A model generated the notes under the pieces. The model worked only from the letters and a program-made list of their open reading frames with translations, was not told the origin of the DNA and ran no database searches. Positions 23,913-32,761 of a stretch of 64,000 nucleotides of DNA are shown one piece after another; position 1 is the stretch's first letter, and the number at the start of each line of letters is the position of its first letter. The translations under genes and the position numbers were made by a program. Source of the stretch: an uncultured Thermoleophilia bacterium (GTDB taxonomy: Bacteria > Actinomycetota > Thermoleophilia > UBA2241); assembly GCA_963831295.1 (NCBI GenBank), contig CAWHPR010000003.1:387746-451745 (forward strand), in the 5' to 3' direction.

Positions 23913-25076
23913 CTACTTGTTGTGGCACTCCTCGCAGACGCCGCGGTCGTCGAGCCGGAGGAAGGCGTTCTTGGTGCCCGGCGGCACGGAGCCGTCGTCG
24001 CTGTCGGGCTCGGGATCGGTGGCGTCCGCGACGTCGGCGAAGCCGGTCATCACGGCGTCCGAGCCGTGGGCGCGATGGCAGGTGAGGCAGTCCATCCAGT
24101 CGTCGGTGCGCGCCTCGGGCGTCCACTCCCCGTACTCCTGGGCGAGCGGCAGCTGCAGGGCCTTGAGGCGGAGCGGACGAGCCCCGAGGTACTCGGCGAG
24201 AGGGACGTTCAAGGGGTGGCGGTAGCGCATGACGTCACCGAAGCCGTCCTCGGCGTCGTACCGGCTCGACGTGTCGAGATCGGCGCGGTGATACTCGGTG
24301 TGGCACGCCGCGCACCAGGCGCTGATCCCGCGCGTCCGGTCCTCGCCGGGAGCCTTGGCGTACATCGGCGTCGTGTAGTCGGGCTCGTACTCCGTCGATC
24401 TGCGCGGCGCCGGCGTCGTGCAGCAGCCAGCCCTCGTCCGGGTAGCCGGGCTCGTTGGAGATCACGAACGGGTCGGGGGCGTACTCGCCGGGGCCGGTCG
24501 CCACGTAGCCGCCCGACCTCGACGCCGTTCACGACGTCCTTGAGCAGGCGGTAGTTCGAGCTGCCGTGCACGTCGTGGCAGGAGCAGCAGGTCATGACGA
24601 CCGTCGCCCTCCCCGCCGCAGGGGCTCGCGAGCGTCGCCGTCACAGTTGTGGTGGTTGTCGCCGACGACGTGCGCGCCGAAGGCGCCTCCGTTGAGGGCG
24701 GCGCCGAGCGTCCCGTACCCGTCGGCCTCGTAGACACCGTCGTCGACGTTCGTCGCGGCGCCGGCCGCGTGCGCCGCCGTGACACGAGAAGCAGAACTGG
24801 CACGAGTCGTGTCTCGGTCCCGAGCAGGAGTGCGCGCCGTTGCTCGCCGGGTGTCGCTCCACGTGATGCTGCTGGCGGCCGTGTGCGCACGGTGGCACCC
24901 GGCGCAGGCGCCTGGGAGTCCATGGAGTAGCCGCCGTGGATCCCGAAGTTCGCGAGGGCAACGCCGGGGAGCAGGCACAGCACGCGGCGACGGCCGTCGA
25001 TGCCGAAGATGCGCAAGAGGGCCGGCGACGACCACCGCCGGCAGCCCGCGACAAGAGTACGCCCCAAGTACCCCAC
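23913..25076 (-). CDS. Hexahaem c-type cytochrome, OmcS-like, paralog A; at least 4 frameshifts in the N-terminal two thirds, start uncertain (GTG 25076 or TTG ~25008)
   Basis: Reconstructed as ..VLCLLPGVALANFGIHGGYSMDS..CAGCHRAHTAASSITWS..CQFCFSCHGGA..AGAATNVDDGVYEADGYGTLG..VMTCCSCHDVHGSSNYRLLKDVVNGVEVGGYV..EPGYPDEGWLLHDAGAAQI..ISAWCAACHTEYH..VMRYRHPLNV..DCLTCHRAHGSDAVMTGFADV..RGVCEECHNK-stop. It has six CXXCH motifs. Confidence 0.75.
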
Positions 25077-25299
25077 AGCCCCCGTGCTCCGTGCCCCGGC
25101 ACCGTGCCCCGGTACCGAGTGTACGGTCAGACGTTAGGGGCGTACGAGGAGGTTCGCAAGCATCTCGCGTGTACAAGTCTGTATACGGGGGCGCCGCCGA
25201 CGCGGTGCGGCACGACGAAGCCCGAAGCGCGGCCGCGGCACGCGAAGGGCGGCCGTCCGGGCGGGGCTCGAGCGGCACGGCGATGCGGGCAGCGAAGAC

Positions 25300-25328
25300 G
25301 GGAGGGCCGGGCATCGCCCGGCCCTCCC
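25300..25328 (-). terminator. Hairpin after OmcS-like gene B
   Basis: Perfect 13-bp stem gggagggccgggc / gcccggccctccc with a 3-nt loop, about 40 nt downstream of the stop at 25368. On the coding strand it is followed by gtcttcgc (poor U tract). Confidence 0.45.
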
Positions 25329-25367
25329 TCGTACACGCCTTCGGCGCGCCGTCGCTTGGCGCCGCCG

Positions 25368-26477
25368 CTACTTGTTGTGGCACTCCTCGCAGACACCGCG
25401 GTTGTCGAGCCGGAGGAACGCGTTCTTCGTGCCCGGCGGCACGGAGCCGTCGTCGCTGTCGGGCTCGGGGTCGGTGGCGTCGGCGACGTCGGCGAAGCCG
25501 CTCATCCGCCTTGTCCGAGCCGTGGGACTGGTGACAGGTGAGGCAGTCCAGCCAGTCGTTCGGGCCGGCCTCGAGGCGTCCAGTCTCCGTACTCCTGCGC
25601 GACGGGGAGCGTCAGGTTCGTGAGGTTGAGCGCGCGAGCGCCCGAGGTAGTCGCTGAGCGGGACGTTCACCGGGTGAGGGTAGCGCATGACGTCGCCGAG
25701 ACCGTCGTCGGCGTCGTACTGGCTCGGCCCACGTGCCGTGATATCTGGTGTGGCACGCCGCGCACCAGGCGCTGATGCCCTTGTCCGGGTCCTCATCGGG
25801 CGCCTTGGCGTACATCGGCGTCGTGTAGCTGGGCTCGTACGCCTCGATCTGCGCCGCACCGGCGTCGTGCAGCAGCCAGCCGTCCTCCGGGTAGCCGGGC
25901 TCGTTGGAGATCACGTACGGGTCGGGGAGGAAGTCGCCGCCGGCCGTCTCGACGTAGCCCCCGACGTCGACGCCGTTCACGACGTCCTTGAGCAGGCGGT
26001 AGTTGGAGCTGCCGTGCACGTCGTGGCAGGAGCCGCAGGTCATGACGATGTCGCCGTCACCGCCGTGGGCGGTCGACGGAGCTCCCGTCGTAGGTGTGGT
26101 GGTTCTCGCCGACGACGTCCTCGCTGAAGGCGCCGCTGTTGAGCTCAGCGCCGAGCGTGCCGTAGTCGCTAGCCTCGTAGACGCCGTCGAAGACGTTCGT
26201 CGCGGCGCCGGCAGCAGCGCTGCCGTGGCAGGTGAAGCAGAATTCGTAGAGCTCGGTCGCGGTCGACAGCAGGAGCGCGCTGCTGCTGCTCGCTCGCCGA
26301 GTTCGTCCACGTGATGCTGCTGGCGGCGGTGTGCGCGCGGTGGCAGCCGGCGCACGTGTGGGTGTCCATGGAGTAGCCGCCGTGGATGCCGAAGTTCGCA
26401 AGGGCGATGCCGGGGGTCAGGAGCAGCACGGACGCGCTGGCTGCCACTGCCAGTATCGAGTCGAGACGTTTCCGCAC
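25368..26477 (-). CDS. Hexahaem c-type cytochrome, OmcS-like, paralog B; at least 5 frameshifts
   Basis: GTG 26477 follows GAGGGGGAAAC. Reconstructed as VRKRLDSILAVAASASVLLLTPGIALANFGIHGGYSMDTHTCAGCHRAHTAASSITWT..LYEFCFTCHGSAAAGAATNVFDGVYEASDYGTLG..IVMTCGSCHDVHGSSNYRLLKDVVNGVDVGGYV..ISAWCAACHTRYH..VMRYPHPVNV..DCLTCHQSHGSDK..GFADVADATDPEPDSDDGSVPPGTKNAFLRLDNRGVCEECHNK-stop. Confidence 0.75.
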
Positions 26478-26594
26478 GTTTCCCCCTCGCACTTCTGCGG
26501 GTCTATCGGTGTTCATCTGGGCGGCGGTGCGATCACCACAAGACAAGCGACCAGCCGGAACTGCCAACACGGGCGCCCCTCGGCGCATGTGCGC

Positions 26595-26623
26595 ATTATA
26601 GGGTCACCACACTAGGGTGACAA
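26595..26623 (-). promoter_or_regulatory. Near-consensus sigma-70-type promoter (TTGTCA-N17-TATAAT) in front of OmcS-like gene B
   Basis: On the minus strand the sequence reads TTGTCA ccctagtgtggtgaccc TATAAT, starting 3 nt after the NHL gene's stop codon (26626-26628). It sits in a locally AT-richer patch and also contains GTCACC..GGTGAC dyad symmetry. The predicted leader to GTG 26477 is ~110 nt. Confidence 0.5.
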
Positions 26624-26625
26624 CA

Positions 26626-28191
26626 TTACGCGCCGCGGCCTCGCGTGTGCTCGCGACCCGACCGCCCCTTGTCGAGGAAGCGCTCCACGAACAGCCGCGC
26701 GTCGTACGCGTCCACTCCCAAAGCCCGAGCGGTCGAGGCCAGCGAGGGGGCCTGCGTGCACAGCGTCCCGGCGCGCCTGGCGACGGTGAGCAGCACCGCG
26801 GTCGGGTGCTCCACGCCGATCCGCTCCATGAGGTCCTTGGCATCGGACTCCGAGTGCGCCTGGGCGGTCAGGAGCGCGTCGAGAGACACCCCGCCGAGCT
26901 CGCGACCCTCGTAGCGAGGGGACTCCTCGGCGGGCACGATCCACATCCAGCGCCTTCTGGACCACGCCCAGCGCGTCCCGGCCTCCATGTACTCGATGAG
27001 GCCGGCGACGGTCATCGCCTCGAGGAAGTCCTCGGTGACCACGAAGCGGCGGCGGCGGAGCAGCAGCAGCAGCGGCAGGAGCAACAGACTCAGCAGAGGC
27101 CAGAGGACGGGCCCGTCGGATATCTCCGAGACGATGGACTGCGGTTCGGGCCACCCCCACACCTGCACCCGACCATTGACGCGATCGGTGAGGTAGATGA
27201 AGCCGCGCCGGTCGAGCGCGAGGTCGTTGGCGAAACGGAACTGGCCCGGGCCGGCGCCCGGGCCGCCGAAGCTGGCGATACGCTCGCCGGACGCGCGGTA
27301 GACGTCTGCCTGGTGCGCGAGCGCGTCGGCCACGTAGAGGCGGCCCTGGTCGTCCATGTCGAGACCGCGCGGGATCCCCGACGTGTTGATGACGCGATCG
27401 AAGTCTCCCTGCTCGCTGAAGACCTGGACCCGCTGGTTGTTGCTGTCGGCCACGTACACGACGCCCTTGCGTACGACGAGGCCGTTGGGGAACAGGAACC
27501 TGCCGGGCACGTCGGTCACCCGCTCGGCCTGCCCCGACCCCCCGAACCGCCGGATCTCGTCGCCCTCTCGATCGAACTCGATGACCTGGTGGAGGTCGCT
27601 GCGGCCCACGTCGCTCACCCAGAGGTTGTCGTCCTCGTCGAAGGCCAAGGCGAGGGGGCCCCACACTGCGGCCTCGTCGGCGTCGGCGGGTGCGACCTTG
27701 CGCAGGTACTCCCCGTCGGCCGAGAACACGTAGACGGCGCGGTGGCCGCGGTCGCTGACGAAGACCTCCCCGATCGAGTTCAGCTCGACGTAGACGGGCG
27801 TGGTGAGGGCGGTCCTGTCGCCGTCGGCGATCTCGGAGAACGAGAAACGGTAGTCGCCCTCGACGGTGTAGACGCGGACCGCTCCGGCGGCCGCGTCGGT
27901 GACGTACACGAGGTCGTCCGCGGACACGTCGACGCCGAGCGGCTGGGTGAGCGCGTCGCGGCCCCCAGGCCCGCTGATCGAGTACAGGTACTCAGGGGGC
28001 GAGACGATCCCTCCGGCGCCGAGGATCGGACCCGGGGCCGACGTGTCGCGGGAGCTGTTGTAGTAGTAGATGGCGCAGAGCGTCAGCACGAGCAGGAGGA
28101 GGGCGGCGAGAAGCGCGACGATCTTGCGCCGCGACGTCCTGCGCTCGGCCCTGCCGAACGGCCCCTGCTCGTGCTGTGCGTCGGTCGCCAT
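26626..28191 (-). CDS. NHL-repeat beta-propeller membrane protein (TM - NHL repeats - TM - ~170-aa cytoplasmic domain), intact
   Basis: The ATG at 28191 is preceded by GGAG. TM1 is KIVALLAALLLLVLTLCAIYYY. Repeated blades: LVYVTDAAAGAVRVY, VFVSDRGHRAVYVF, LWVSDVGRSDLHQVIEF, VYVADSNNQRVQVF, LYVADALAHQADVY, IYLTDRVNGRVQVW. TM2 is VLWPLLSLLLLPLLLLL, followed by RRRRFVVTEDFLEAM... Confidence 0.8.
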   Translation of the reverse strand: MATDAQHEQGPFGRAERRTSRRKIVALLAALLLLVLTLCAIYYYNSSRDTSAPGPILGAGGIVSPPEYLYSISGPGGRDALTQPLGVDVSADDLVYVTDAAAGAVRVYTVEGDYRFSFSEIADGDRTALTTPVYVELNSIGEVFVSDRGHRAVYVFSADGEYLRKVAPADADEAAVWGPLALAFDEDDNLWVSDVGRSDLHQVIEFDREGDEIRRFGGSGQAERVTDVPGRFLFPNGLVVRKGVVYVADSNNQRVQVFSEQGDFDRVINTSGIPRGLDMDDQGRLYVADALAHQADVYRASGERIASFGGPGAGPGQFRFANDLALDRRGFIYLTDRVNGRVQVWGWPEPQSIVSEISDGPVLWPLLSLLLLPLLLLLRRRRFVVTEDFLEAMTVAGLIEYMEAGTRWAWSRRRWMWIVPAEESPRYEGRELGGVSLDALLTAQAHSESDAKDLMERIGVEHPTAVLLTVARRAGTLCTQAPSLASTARALGVDAYDARLFVERFLDKGRSGREHTRGRGA

Positions 28192-28199
28192 GGGCTCCG

Positions 28200-29207
28200 T
28201 CAGTCCTCGGCCTGAAGGCGCTTGAGCGCGGCGACGGCCTCGGGCTCGTCGGGCCACAGGGCGAGCACCTTCTGCCAGGCCTCTTCAGCCGAGCCGGGGT
28301 CGCCCGTACGCAGGTAGAGCTTGGCGACCAGCTTGGCGGCGGCCGGGCTGCCGGGGTCGAGGGCGCGGGCCACTCGGGCCTCGACGAGCGCGGCCGAAGC
28401 GTCGGTCTTGGCCAGCCGTCTCGCGGCGGCGAAGCGCTCCTCGAACGGCCCCAGCCGGACGAGCTCATCGCCCGGCTCCGTGATCCCCTCGGGAGCGTTG
28501 TCGGCCGAGGTGCGGAAGTGCTCGGCTGCTCCGGCGACGTCGTCGTCGGCGAGCAGCAGCAGACCGTAGTCGTAGTTGGCCTCGGGCATCAGCGGGTCGA
28601 ACATGAGCGCCCTCTCGAGGTGGAGACGCTGGTTGGCGACCGAGGCGCGTTCGCGATATGCGACCGCGAGCGCGTAGTGCGTGTCCGCGGCGGTGCGGCG
28701 GATCTTCAGCGCTTCGTGCAGGTACTTGACCGCCTCTCTGTACTTCTCGCGTTCGATGAGCGTCACGCCGAGCTGATGGTAGGCCACGGCGAGGCGCTGG
28801 TCGAGGCCGGCATACTGCCCCGTCCCGATCTCACCGACGACGCGGCGCCAGTACTCCTCGGCGCTCTCCCACTCGCCCTCGTACATGGCGATGAGGCCGA
28901 GACCCGTGAGCGCGTCGGGGTTGTTCTCGTCGAGTTCGAGCACGACGCCGAACTGCTCGATGGCGTCGTCGACCTGGCCGGCCGCGGCGTAGGCCTCGGC
29001 GAGCGTCAGCCGCAAGCTGAGGTCGTTGGGGTTCTCCTCGATGGCGGCGATGAGGTCTGTGATGACTCTGGACGCCGCCGCCGATTCGCGCTCCCGCGAC
29101 TGTTCCGTGAGGACGGTGTAGGCGAGATACCCGATGGCGACCACGGCCAGCAGCACGACCACTTTGAGGGCCACGTCGATCCACCGCGTGTCCCGCAGGG
29201 CCCTCAC
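28200..29207 (-). CDS. Membrane-anchored TPR-repeat protein, intact
   Basis: 335-aa ORF with N-terminal TM WIDVALKVVVLLAVVAIGYLAYTVL, followed by TPR-like helices (LAEAYAAAGQVDDAIEQFGVVLELDENNPDAL.., AVAYHQLGVTLIEREKYREAVKYLHEALKI..). Confidence 0.8.
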   Translation of the reverse strand: MRALRDTRWIDVALKVVVLLAVVAIGYLAYTVLTEQSRERESAAASRVITDLIAAIEENPNDLSLRLTLAEAYAAAGQVDDAIEQFGVVLELDENNPDALTGLGLIAMYEGEWESAEEYWRRVVGEIGTGQYAGLDQRLAVAYHQLGVTLIEREKYREAVKYLHEALKIRRTAADTHYALAVAYRERASVANQRLHLERALMFDPLMPEANYDYGLLLLADDDVAGAAEHFRTSADNAPEGITEPGDELVRLGPFEERFAAARRLAKTDASAALVEARVARALDPGSPAAAKLVAKLYLRTGDPGSAEEAWQKVLALWPDEPEAVAALKRLQAED

Positions 29208-29253
29208 GCGTCGCTCGTCACGTCGGCAAAGGCATGACCCGTCGCGAGGGCGA

Positions 29254-30852
29254 TCACAGGTGCGGCCCGGTGTGACAGCGCTTGCACAGGTCGGATCCCG
29301 GCCACGGCGCGATCTGGTCGCCGCGGGAGTCCGCGGCGCCGTGGCAGTCGTAGCAGATGCGGATGTCGTGCCCCCCGATCTCGGCGGACTGCTGACCGGC
29401 GTGCTGTACCCGCGCCGCCGTCAGCTTGAGATGGCAGTCGTCGCAGCGGTGCGGCCTGCCGACGTGTTCTTCGACATCGAAGTGCGCGGCGTGCTCGGCG
29501 AGCTTCGCCACCTTGATCTCACTGGGCCGTCTGCGCATCTCGGGATGACAGTTCACGCAGTTCTCGGCCCGCAACTCCTGACTGCGGTCGGGATCGTGGT
29601 GGCACTCCTGACACCAGTTGCGGTCCGAGTGGCACACGCCGCAGTCGTCGGGCATGAAGCCGCTGGACGTGTGCGACGCGAGCCAGGTCGTCGGGTGCGG
29701 CATGACAGTCGGGTGGCACCGGCTGCACGACTCGTTCGTGTGGCAGATCGAGCACGTGGCTTCTCCGCTGAGAAGGAACGGCTCGCCGTGCTCGGCCATC
29801 CACGCGGCGGTCTGGTGGTCGTCGGGGATCACCTCTTTGCTGTACGAGCCGTCCGGCAGCCGCTTCTCGCTGCGGTGACACTCCGCGCAGAACGCCGAAG
29901 CGTGGCAGGTCGTGCAGTCGAGCAGGTCCTCGGCGCCCGGCTTGCGGTGACTGCTCGCGATGAACGCCGCCGTGTGATCGGCCGGCACGAGCTCGAAGCC
30001 CGGCGGATGACACGCCCCGCACTCGTCGGGAGCGGCCTCGCCGTCCTCGGTGTGCTGAACGCCGTGGCAGCGATAGCACGACGACATGTCGGGGCGGTCG
30101 GTGGCGCCGGCGCGGTGCGGGAACCTCTCGTGGCACACCTCGCAATCGTAGTCGCGTTCGAAGTGCACGGCGTGCGTGAAGAGCAGGCCGTCCCCCTCGC
30201 TCCTGTCGATGTCGGGGTGGCAGAAGACGCACTGCCCCATCGTGACAGGCCCGTCCACACTGATCGTGAGGGGCGGCCGCGACTCGGGCAGGGGGACGTT
30301 GCGCAGATAGCCCGGTGCGGCAAGCGGCGTGTCGACCCCCTGTTCCCTGTGGCAGGCATCGCAGTGCGCGCGCGCCTCGTGGCACATCATGCAGCCGTTC
30401 GAGCCTCCGCGCTCCACGGCGCCGGCGTGCGGCTCCTCGGTCCAGTCCTCGCTGTGATCCGCGGGCCTGAGCTCGAAGGCCTGCGTGTGGCAGGTGTCGC
30501 ACGAGTCGGCGGCCATGACGCCGTCGGAACCGTGAACGAGCCCGTGACAGGCGAAGCACGTCTCCATCGGCGGCACGTGCGTTGCGCCGCCCTCGTGCGC
30601 CGAACGCACGTGGCACACGCTGCAGTCGACGGTGGCGTGCGCATCGTGTGCGAAGACGAGGCCGGGGTCGCGAGACTCGGCGATGCGCTGGTGACAGGGA
30701 CTGCACGACTCGATGCGCACCGGGCCGGTCAGATCGATCTCGGTGGGCTGTGTCGCGCCCACGCCCGGCTGCAGCGTGCCGGCCAGCACGACGACGACGA
30801 CGGCGATGGCGGTCGCCGCTGTCAGGTACGCGTGTCGGCGGGTCGGTCGCAT
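29254..30852 (-). CDS. Multihaem c-type cytochrome with 20 CXXCH motifs, N-terminal membrane anchor/signal, intact
   Basis: 532-aa ORF. I count 20 CXXCH motifs: CSPCH, CSVCH, CFACH, CDTCH, CMMCH, CDACH, CVFCH, CEVCH, CYRCH, CGACH, CTTCH, CAECH, CSICH, CSRCH, CGVCH, CQECH, CVNCH, CDDCH, CYDCH, CKRCH. The N-terminus is MRPTRRHAYLTAATAIAVVVVVLAG. Confidence 0.9.
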   Translation of the reverse strand: MRPTRRHAYLTAATAIAVVVVVLAGTLQPGVGATQPTEIDLTGPVRIESCSPCHQRIAESRDPGLVFAHDAHATVDCSVCHVRSAHEGGATHVPPMETCFACHGLVHGSDGVMAADSCDTCHTQAFELRPADHSEDWTEEPHAGAVERGGSNGCMMCHEARAHCDACHREQGVDTPLAAPGYLRNVPLPESRPPLTISVDGPVTMGQCVFCHPDIDRSEGDGLLFTHAVHFERDYDCEVCHERFPHRAGATDRPDMSSCYRCHGVQHTEDGEAAPDECGACHPPGFELVPADHTAAFIASSHRKPGAEDLLDCTTCHASAFCAECHRSEKRLPDGSYSKEVIPDDHQTAAWMAEHGEPFLLSGEATCSICHTNESCSRCHPTVMPHPTTWLASHTSSGFMPDDCGVCHSDRNWCQECHHDPDRSQELRAENCVNCHPEMRRRPSEIKVAKLAEHAAHFDVEEHVGRPHRCDDCHLKLTAARVQHAGQQSAEIGGHDIRICYDCHGAADSRGDQIAPWPGSDLCKRCHTGPHL

Positions 30853-30874
30853 ACGTCCCTGCGGGCGGCCCGGT

Positions 30875-31745
30875 CTATCCGCCGAACAGTCCGGCGATGG
30901 CGCCCCCGACCCACTTGAGGGTCGAGTAGAGCGGGTTGGCCTCGAGCACGTCGCGCTTGCCGTGGATCAACTCGGTGTACTCGAGGAAGCCCTCGTTGAC
31001 GTCACCCTTGTGACAGGCGCCGCACGTGTCCGCCAGCCGGCTCTGGTGAACAGGCGACCGGGGATCGGACGACGGGTAGACGTCATGGTAGCCGTGGCAG
31101 TCCCAGCACGCCGGTGCGTCTGTTGCTCCCCGACGGTACGCGCGCCCGTGGTAGTAGTCGTCGTAGCTGTTCCACTCGTCTTCGTGGCACCTGCCGCAGA
31201 CCTCCCAGCCGTCGGCGTGCAGGGCGCGGCGGCCTTCTGGGCTGTCCGCGAGCGCGACGACGCCGTGGCTGCCGTGGCAGTCACCGCAGAGCGGGAACTC
31301 GGCTCCTTCGGGGACGGCGCCGGCATGGTCCTCGACCTTGCCCCGGTGGACGCTGGCCCAGTATGCGCGGCTCTCTTGCTGATGGCAGTTCTTGCAGGCC
31401 AGGCGTGAAACGTGGTCCCAGTTCTCGGACGGCTGGGTGTGCGGCGCCGTGAAGGCGAAGTCGATGTGACAGCCGATGCACTGCACGTCCGCGTGCGGGC
31501 TGGCCGCGAGCTCGTCGGTGTCGACGTAGTAGCTCACGATCTCTCCGCCCTCCGGCCGGACCGAGGTCCTCGTCGTCATGGCAGACGAGGCATCCGGCCC
31601 GCGACGCCGTGGGCAGCGTGAAGTCGACGTCGTATCCGCCGACCTGAGGATCGGTGTCACCGCTCTCGGCGAGCGCCGGGGTCGCCGACGAGAGCGCCAT
31701 CACGCACGCCAGGGCGACGAGCAGGAGCATCTTGCGGGTCGTCAT
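30875..31745 (-). CDS. Heptahaem c-type cytochrome with signal peptide and C-terminal hydrophobic anchor (CbcA-like); 1 frameshift near 31560
   Basis: MTTRKMLLLVALACVMALSSATPALAES..CLVCH (ORF 31281..31745) joins ORF 30875..31660 (CIGCH, CKNCH, CGDCH, CGRCH, CWDCH, CGACH), ending ..LKWVGGAIAGLFGG-stop. ATGA overlap with the cytochrome b stop. Confidence 0.8.
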
Positions 31746-32761
31746 TCGGTGTCACCTGCAGACGGCCCGCTCACGTGCGTCGACTGCATCGGCGTCAGGA
31801 CCCCCACCTTCTGACGCGAGTCTTGGTGTGGTGGCTGGACGTGAGTCGGAGCGGGTGCCGGGTGCGACTGCTCCTCAGGGCGGCTGTCGCCGGGCGTTCC
31901 TTGCGACTCCTGCGACGCGCGCCGGGACGGTCGCGAGCGCTTCAGGATGCCGAAGAAGTCACGGACCGCGGGGAAGTCCTCAGTCACGCAGAGGTACGCA
32001 TGGACGGTCGTGAGGATGATGAACAGCCACGTGATCGCGTAGTGGAGGGAGCGCGCGTACCATCCGGCGAGGTCGGTCGAGCCCACGAGCGCGCCAAGCC
32101 ACCAGCCGAGCAGCAGGTCGCGCGGGCTGTAGCCGAAGATGAACGGCGTGACGACGAGCGAGAATCCCGTGAGCGCCTGCAGGGTCATGAGCGGCACGAA
32201 CAGGATGTACGTGGCCTTCTGCATGACGTTGTACTTGCAGAGATGCGGTTTCGAGCTCTTGATGAACACGTAGTAGAGGGCGCACTTGGGCGCCGAGCAG
32301 ACATCCTGCTTCGTGATGGCGAACTCCTTGTAGTCACGCCGCTTCGAGAAGAACGCGCACCATATGCGCCACGCGAAGTTGACCGTGACGACGATCATGA
32401 ACACGTAGTGGACGCCGCGCATCGCGCTGCGGCCGCCGTCGAAGAACGGGAAGCGGATGTAGAGACCGGTGAATCCCAGCGCGAACATCGAGAACACGTG
32501 CTGGAAGTGCAGGAACTTGTTGAGGAGTGGGATCGGCGGCCCGTCGTGGTCGGGCCACTGCTTGTTCACGTACCGGGCCTTGAGGCGCCCGGTGAGCAGG
32601 TTGCCGACGAGGTGCGCCGACAACGCGGCGACGACGAGCACGTACAGCGTGGTGAAGCCGACATCGAGCCAGACGTTCAGTTCTGACAGTGGTATTACTG
32701 ACCCCCCCTCGGGTGTCCGCCCATAATACCGCGTCCGGAGTGCTCCAGGGCCCCGACGCAC
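31742..32761 (-). CDS. Membrane b-type cytochrome (PhsC / formate-dehydrogenase gamma / Ni-Fe hydrogenase cytochrome b family; CbcB-like)
   Basis: Polytopic protein with conserved His residues in TM helices (LNKFLHFQHVFSMFALGFTGLYIRFPFF, RGVHYVFMIVVTVNFAWRIW, SLHYAITWLFIILTTVHAY). The listed GTG 32761 lies inside a strong hairpin. An alternative start is an ATA codon at 32695, which sits 6 nt after GAGGGGGGG. Confidence 0.75.
   Translation of the reverse strand: MRRGPGALRTRYYGRTPEGGSVIPLSELNVWLDVGFTTLYVLVVAALSAHLVGNLLTGRLKARYVNKQWPDHDGPPIPLLNKFLHFQHVFSMFALGFTGLYIRFPFFDGGRSAMRGVHYVFMIVVTVNFAWRIWCAFFSKRRDYKEFAITKQDVCSAPKCALYYVFIKSSKPHLCKYNVMQKATYILFVPLMTLQALTGFSLVVTPFIFGYSPRDLLLGWWLGALVGSTDLAGWYARSLHYAITWLFIILTTVHAYLCVTEDFPAVRDFFGILKRSRPSRRASQESQGTPGDSRPEEQSHPAPAPTHVQPPHQDSRQKVGVLTPMQSTHVSGPSAGDTE

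Follow-up and report, generated by a model that had tools for sequence, protein, structure and literature searches.

A 20-haem c-type cytochrome in a conserved Actinobacteria gene cluster, a candidate segment of an electron relay outside the membrane

We analysed a 64,000-nucleotide stretch, hereafter the window, of the genome of an uncultured Thermoleophilia bacterium (assembly GCA_963831295.1; contig CAWHPR010000003.1, here C3). It contains an intact gene for a c-type cytochrome with 20 haem-binding motifs, whose family, so far uncharacterised, spans about 100 species of Coriobacteriia and one Thermoleophilia genus. We read the protein, with a probability of roughly 0.55, as a secreted, non-catalytic haem relay that would form the middle segment of an extracytoplasmic electron path in a cell that has no outer membrane. 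Its location, its partners, the direction of electron flow and any wall-spanning geometry are what we infer from the comparisons below.

Results

The 20-haem gene and its product

The 20-haem reading frame is a genuine, intact gene. It lies on the minus strand at 29254..30852, starts with ATG and encodes 532 aa, with a calculated mass including haems of 70 kDa in full and 67 kDa if cut after Ala33. The first-pass annotation had counted 20 CXXCH motifs, about one haem per 27 residues, and this was borne out: there are exactly 20 motifs (one haem per 26.6 residues), and all 40 cysteines fall inside them. In 2000 shuffled versions of the protein, the mean was 0.26 CXXCH and the maximum 3. No CXXXCH or CXXCK variant was present in the 532 residues. 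The pattern CXXCH..F.H..H..CXXCH occurs at residues 50-81 and 208-241, with an H..HF variant at 454-458. The start codon is backed by an AGGGA 5-9 nt upstream of the ATG and by the conserved N-termini of orthologues (MRPTRRH...). The G+C content of the window is 68-74%, and GC3 in the 20-haem frame is 0.88. Comparison with the 93%-identical orthologue (locus L003) gave a dN/dS of 0.21, indicating purifying selection.

The protein has a single N-terminal hydrophobic stretch (residues 9-27), with a modelled helix at residues 5-26, and it lacks a lipobox because its first cysteine is residue 50. These two features had been taken to mean a membrane anchor. The features themselves stand, but an uncleaved anchor is unproven, since the export signal (residues 1-33, MRPTRRHAYLTAATAIAVVVVVLAGTLQPGVGA/TQ, the slash marking the candidate cleavage site; 30754..30852, minus strand) has the Gram-positive Sec form, in which two arginines in the n-region precede about 19 hydrophobic residues and then P-G-V-G-A/T, and since several homologues carry classic AXA-type ends (PASA/Q, AHA/Q, AFA/A). 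The signal-like segment is conserved across the family. The -3/-1 rule found a candidate cleavage site in 72 of 72 homologues, so it cannot discriminate cleaved from uncleaved proteins. Judged by its layout, the segment is probably a cleavable Sec signal peptide; that it acts as an uncleaved signal-anchor is a lesser but substantial possibility. Tat export, suggested by the string TRRHAYL, was rejected because this motif matches weakly and c-type cytochromes leave the cell in unfolded form.

Module plan, haem ligands and fold

The spacing of the motifs repeats along the chain (27, 22, 19, 36, 10 / 44 / 29, 22, 19, 35, 9). Profile-profile alignment with hhalign matched residues 40-195 to residues 196-350 with a probability of 100%, E=5.5e-46 and 41% identity, which confirmed the internal duplication that the motif pairs had suggested. 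By the same kind of comparison, the region of haems 17-20 matched that of haems 1-4 of the six-haem module (E=3e-13), and that of haems 13-16 matched the stretch of the module spanning haems 4-6 (E=2e-7). The haem plan is thus (4+2)+(4+2)+(2+2)+4. On the minus strand, module 1 (residues 38-169, haems 1-6 as 4+2) is encoded at 30346..30741, its duplicate module 2 (residues 196-327, haems 7-12) at 29872..30267, the two CXXCH pairs of haems 13-16 (residues 343-419) at 29596..29826, and haems 17-20 (residues 424-528) at 29269..29583.

In an alignment of 73 sequences, 19 of the 20 CXXCH motifs were fully invariant, and the first cysteine of motif 19 was kept in more than 90%. Outside the motifs, exactly 20 histidines were invariant or nearly so, split 6+6+8 like the haems; those of module 1 are residues 69, 72, 86, 107, 133 and 142. 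This pattern suggests that all 20 haems are bis-His ligated. One conserved candidate distal histidine for each haem points to the absence of a catalytic haem, and the earlier idea of a haem-wire type of protein is supported to the extent that 20 distal histidines for 20 haems fit a chain for electron transfer only. AlphaFold2 models, which were built without haems, reached a pLDDT of 77.7 at full length; the module 1 model reached 89. Foldseek searches of the PDB with the full and module models gave no match at E<1, haem-less models being poor queries; only c3 cytochromes surfaced, at E of about 1. We assume that the haem chain is linear.

Family and distribution

Three Pfam models scored above their cut-offs, namely Cytochrome_C7 (PF14522, 66.3 bits; cut-off 24.8), Cytochrom_c3_2 (PF14537, 50.4; 25) and Cytochrom_CIII (PF02085, 25.2; 22.9), which assign the protein by sequence to the class III multihaem cytochromes c (c3/c7 superfamily). 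An NCBIfam search, which included the MtrA/DmsE type TIGR03508, returned no family for it. The best profile match in the PDB was the Geobacter dodecahaem cytochrome GSU1996 (E=1.9e-12, a local match in five stretches), so that the comparison with this protein proposed at the outset led to the closest solved relative; the 16-haem HmcA (1e-6) and ActA of alternative complex III (ACIII; 4e-6) followed. Two candidate assignments were discarded. For a quinol dehydrogenase of the NapC/NirT/CymA type, the 20-haem protein gave no match to the tetrahaem domain PF03264, which occurs only in distant hits of 24-29% identity, and the matches to ActA were local, about 50 residues long, with act genes absent from the cluster.

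Homology searches retrieved about 75 proteins of 505-565 aa with 42-75% identity. Those labelled with a taxon came from Thermoleophilia or Coriobacteriia, except for one labelled Aeromicrobium, and none bore a functional name. Among species-representative genomes, 113 stretches encode a relative, including those of Anaerosomatales and of the Coriobacteriaceae member EMTCatB1. After clustering at 50%, about a dozen representatives matched over the full length, and 148 modular relatives were found below 1e-30. Within its own genus the gene is present in 6 of 13 genomes and absent from 7, and 18 further genomes from its family or class all lack it. This patchy presence marks it as an accessory trait, and it was possibly acquired from Coriobacteriia. 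Judged by title and abstract, none of the publications in the literature set searched that mention Thermoleophilia together with multihaem cytochromes appears to treat such a protein.

Operon and conserved gene order

The 20-haem gene is tightly packed between its neighbours on the minus strand. A 7-haem cytochrome gene (30875..31745), with one single-base insertion near 31561, ends 22 nt upstream of it, and before that lies a gene for a dihaem cytochrome b of the hydrogenase/formate dehydrogenase (FDH) membrane anchor family (PF01292; 31742..32761). Downstream, after 46 nt, follow a membrane-anchored TPR protein that weakly matches the CcmH/CycH TPR domain (28200..29207), an NHL beta-propeller membrane protein (26626..28257; likely start by homology, 28191) and two tandem genes for OmcS-like hexahaem cytochromes (23916..26450), both broken by single-base indels here. 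From cytochrome b to NHL, the intergenic spaces held no terminator-like site on the minus strand, the sole one lying inside the NHL gene, and a promoter-like site was found downstream of the NHL gene (26595-26623).

We compared gene order around 80 species loci, counting for each neighbour the loci with enough flank. The order is nearly invariant across the family: cytochrome b, 6-7-haem cytochrome, (12-13-haem cytochrome), 20-haem cytochrome, TPR, NHL and OmcS-like hexahaem. The TPR gene directly follows the 20-haem gene in 69 of 70 loci and is itself followed by the NHL gene in all 60; an OmcS-like hexahaem gene occurs within 10 kb downstream in 43/43. Upstream, the 6-7-haem gene was found in 67 of 74 loci and cytochrome b in 56 of 66. 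The 12-13-haem protein is an extra of the Coriobacteriia, with an N-terminal half resembling the six-haem module and a C-terminal half resembling the 7-haem protein. The fixed place of the 20-haem gene, between cytochrome b with the 6-7-haem protein on one side and TPR, NHL and hexahaem on the other, fits a relay role.

Several details vary around this core. The 93%-identical relative has one OmcS-like gene (L003:14479-15474) where the window has two, and other members of the genus have one or two. At about 32703, near the 5' end of the cytochrome b gene, the window carries two extra G in a G-run (GAGGGGG[GG]) compared with L003; this makes the GTG start at 32761 doubtful, and the true start is probably downstream, homology beginning near 32647. 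At about 22841, a 31-nt insertion relative to L003 lies at the start of a CoA-binding gene, with more small insertions nearby. Some of the Coriobacteriia clusters have a gene for an FKBP-type prolyl isomerase directly before cytochrome b (L019:6241-6675 and 13 other loci). In at least 16 loci, the hexahaem gene is followed by one for a conserved protein of 450-500 aa without a Pfam match (for example L019:19909-21414 and L071:19753-21111).

Partner enzymes and the proposed relay

In most relatives, the distal end of the cluster encodes an enzyme. FDH genes were present in 27 of the 44 loci with enough flank and [NiFe] hydrogenase genes in 15, each with the hexahaem gene directly after, and the enzyme-free cluster is found in the Thermoleophilia version only. 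It had been proposed that the 20-haem protein could bridge the membrane module to filament cytochromes. Its fixed position between the modules agrees with a bridge, but the hexahaem gene directly follows FDH or hydrogenase in 42 of 44 relatives, so what stands at the distal end may be a subunit of an enzyme and not a filament.

At L019:14455-19933 and in 26 other Coriobacteriia loci, the hexahaem gene follows that of the FDH beta subunit, nearly always after 0-90 nt; in L019 its start overlaps the beta stop. The hexahaem stands where the cytochrome b subunit of FDH usually would. The FDH alpha gene of L019 has an in-frame TGA in the selenocysteine motif HQARI-U-HSSTVAGLG. A paralogous cluster (L071:14835-19576 and 14 other loci) ends instead in the small and large [NiFe] subunits, then the hexahaem, and in some genomes the two versions lie about 30 kb apart (OW818687.1: L047 and L071). 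A more distant homologue (33% identity) likewise has an NHL gene close by, together with a hydrogenase that precedes a multihaem gene.

In the relay that we favour, the 20-haem cytochrome would be exported by Sec and work at the outer face of the cytoplasmic membrane as the middle segment of a reversible electron relay; the cell itself would lack an outer membrane. On one side, cytochrome b and the 7-haem module would exchange electrons with menaquinone. On the distal side would stand the OmcS-like hexahaems, free in this Thermoleophilia lineage and attached to FDH or [NiFe] hydrogenase in Coriobacteriia, and the TPR and NHL membrane proteins may mature or scaffold the 20-haem protein. The absence of Omp85 from 8/8 high-quality relatives fits a cell without an outer membrane. 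Genomes of the same genus carry Ccm maturation genes. The genome of the window itself yielded no gene for cytochrome c maturation, but at 57% completeness it says little about these genes or about Omp85, so relatives served for both.

Published work on two organisms lends this reading indirect support. EMTCatB1, whose homologue is 48% identical to the 20-haem protein, transcribes the cluster at about 5-12 times the open-circuit level when grown on a poised biocathode; many of its growth genes rise likewise on the poised cathode, so this induction is unspecific (PMC7943316). Its gene 1c0412 in that data set would, by gene order, correspond to the 20-haem gene. In the obligate Fe(III) reducer Parvivirga hydrogeniphila, a cluster of multihaem cytochromes with formate dehydrogenase has been highlighted (PMC9686372), and it is probably equivalent to the cluster described here.

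The enzyme-bearing loci also suggest that the 20-haem protein could be a collector like HmcA, passing electrons inward from extracytoplasmic FDH or hydrogenase to cytochrome b and menaquinone with no extracellular acceptor or filament. The hydrogenase or FDH followed by a hexahaem at the end of the cluster in those 42 of 44 relatives, the membership of cytochrome b in the membrane anchor family of these enzymes, and the local profile match to the 16-haem HmcA all speak for it. We nevertheless think it unlikely, because the lineage of the window has no dehydrogenase in the cluster, a chain of 33-44 haems would be needless if cytochrome b bound the enzymes directly, and the cluster is found in a cathode-associated organism and, with the equivalence just given, an obligate Fe(III) reducer.

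Another reading is a soluble electron store, a capacitor in the wall space that would buffer electrons when acceptors are scarce and have no fixed partners. It would agree with the probable cleavable signal peptide, with the absence of other anchoring motifs and with a haem density equal to that of GSU1996, a protein with a storage role (about 26.5 residues per haem). A gene order that hardly varies, with specific partners, argues instead for a defined complex, and a secreted soluble protein would diffuse away from a cell without an outer membrane unless it were bound; we consider a store improbable.

Frameshifted neighbours

The genes around the 20-haem gene had been described as riddled with frameshifts. 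This holds for five of them: the 7-haem gene has one frameshift, the two OmcS-like genes at least five and at least seven indels, a radical SAM gene three and an S9 peptidase gene one. The TPR and NHL genes, with no indel relative to L003, are exceptions, and so is cytochrome b, which stays in a single frame throughout its homologous part. Nearly all the indels are +1 and specific to the window. Compared with L003, four genes (S9 peptidase, 7-haem, OmcS-like A and radical SAM) and intergenic DNA as well carry single-base insertions, with none from 26579 to 31560. Positions of the +1 insertions include about 31561, 26282, 26080, 25643, 25576, 25507, 23629, 23395 and 22974.

A frame-tracking model placed 480 frameshift-like junctions genome-wide, clustered at contig ends and in C3 at 300-450 kb. 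Per 50 kb in C3:300000-450000 there are 105, 39 and 24 junctions, against a baseline of 4-8, and the window (C3:387746-451745) lies in this error-rich zone. All cluster genes are in one frame in L003 and in three short-read relatives, and the frameshifts of another long-read relative hit different genes. The frameshifts are most likely consensus errors of the assembly. The contrast between the intact 20-haem gene and its neighbours, pointed out in the first-pass annotation, is real but almost certainly an artefact of the same kind: at the local average of 0.55 frameshifts per kb, a 1.6-kb gene escapes with a probability of about 0.4, and since the frameshifts behave like assembly errors, its intactness has no biological meaning.

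Taken as real, the frameshifts in the neighbouring genes would leave this organism with a broken pathway, and the 20-haem frame would be the survivor of a decaying, non-functional cluster. The five frameshifted neighbours are what this reading has in its favour. It is very unlikely given the window-specific +1 insertions, their presence in intergenic DNA and concentration in the error-rich 150-kb zone and at contig ends, the intact genes of the close and the short-read relatives, the different genes hit in the other long-read genome, and the dN/dS of the 20-haem gene itself. Pseudogene calls within the window need caution, as it lies in a poor-consensus zone of a long-read assembly.

Elsewhere in this genome, three overlapping frames at C4:90398-93982 carry 14, 11 and 15 CXXCH motifs and are probably the frameshifted pieces of a single giant cytochrome with about 40 haems; it shares only 23-29% identity with the 20-haem protein. 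A 12-haem ORF is found at C3:58577-59635.

Discussion

The relay outlined above assigns no catalytic role to the 20-haem protein itself. Catalysis, for example as a multihaem reductase of nitrogen or sulfur oxyanions, is hardly credible: weak local profile matches to HAO-like and NrfA chains exist (E=1e-4 to 1e-2) but span haem-binding stretches only, and every haem has its conserved candidate distal histidine, with no CXXCK and no unpaired motif.

Modular multihaem "wire" cytochromes are already known; the 20-haem protein adds one, and alone it would not surprise specialists. GSU1996 of Geobacter sulfurreducens (PDB 3ov0) is likewise made of repeated c7/c3-type haem modules. It consists of four three-haem domains, each of which has one His-Met-ligated haem, whereas the unit of the 20-haem protein is a six-haem 4+2 module instead of tandem three-haem c7 domains, its 20 haems have, as far as the sequence tells, all-His ligands, its host is Gram-positive and its operon context is fixed. 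HmcA of Desulfovibrio (16 haems; PDB 1z1n, 1h29) is likewise a large multi-domain cytochrome of c3 type. HmcA links an extracytoplasmic hydrogenase or FDH to a membrane complex; the 20-haem cluster differs in lacking hmcBCDEF, in its module plan and in having the pair of cytochrome b and 7-haem protein as membrane partner. CbcBA of Geobacter sulfurreducens, a cytochrome b with a 7-haem cytochrome c, is comparable to the gene pair just upstream, whose products would feed or drain the 20-haem protein, and not to the 20-haem protein itself.

Two other systems are alike in concept or in gene content. For the Gram-positive Firmicute Thermincola potens, multihaem cytochromes of membrane, wall and surface have been proposed as a relay (Carlson 2012 and Costa 2019, as cited in PMC7943316). 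The likeness is drawn at the level of concept, with several multihaem cytochromes carrying electrons from the membrane across a thick wall; the Thermincola proteins have 6-10 haems, and the conserved TPR/NHL pair is not described there. The uet cluster of 'Ca. Tenderia electrophaga', which has been tied to electron uptake from electrodes (bioRxiv 10.1101/2022.05.06.490989), combines a long multihaem "wire" cytochrome with NHL beta-propellers and an NrfG-like TPR protein, as the 20-haem cluster does, and includes a prolyl isomerase, as do some of the Coriobacteriia clusters. Here the likeness is one of gene content, and the uet system differs in its Gram-negative host, its outer-membrane barrel and its 11-haem cytochrome.

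A wider proposal, which we put forward tentatively and think rather unlikely as a whole, is that the 20-haem, TPR and NHL proteins form the invariant core of a plug-in, bidirectional, wall-crossing conduit peculiar to bacteria that lack an outer membrane, which the Thermoleophilia genus would have acquired from Coriobacteriia. The proteins with 7, (13) and 20 haems would join at their ends, making a non-polymeric wire of 27-40 haems across the Gram-positive wall. One core could then couple to formate dehydrogenase, to [NiFe] hydrogenase or to free OmcS-like cytochromes, and could run in either direction, with Fe(III) reduction in Parvivirga and cathodic electron uptake in EMTCatB1. The transfer from Coriobacteriia would have been horizontal and into a single Thermoleophilia genus.

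The main value added by this analysis is the fixed core of 20-haem, TPR and NHL proteins with exchangeable enzyme ends. How electrons pass the thick wall of Gram-positive bacteria is known in outline, for a few Firmicutes only. The cluster ranges from soil Thermoleophilia to subsurface Coriobacteriia and probably to a cultured obligate iron reducer, and it also occurs in the organism that dominates a methane-producing cathode. A conserved cluster in Actinobacteria is therefore a concrete, testable candidate for an electron route across the wall.
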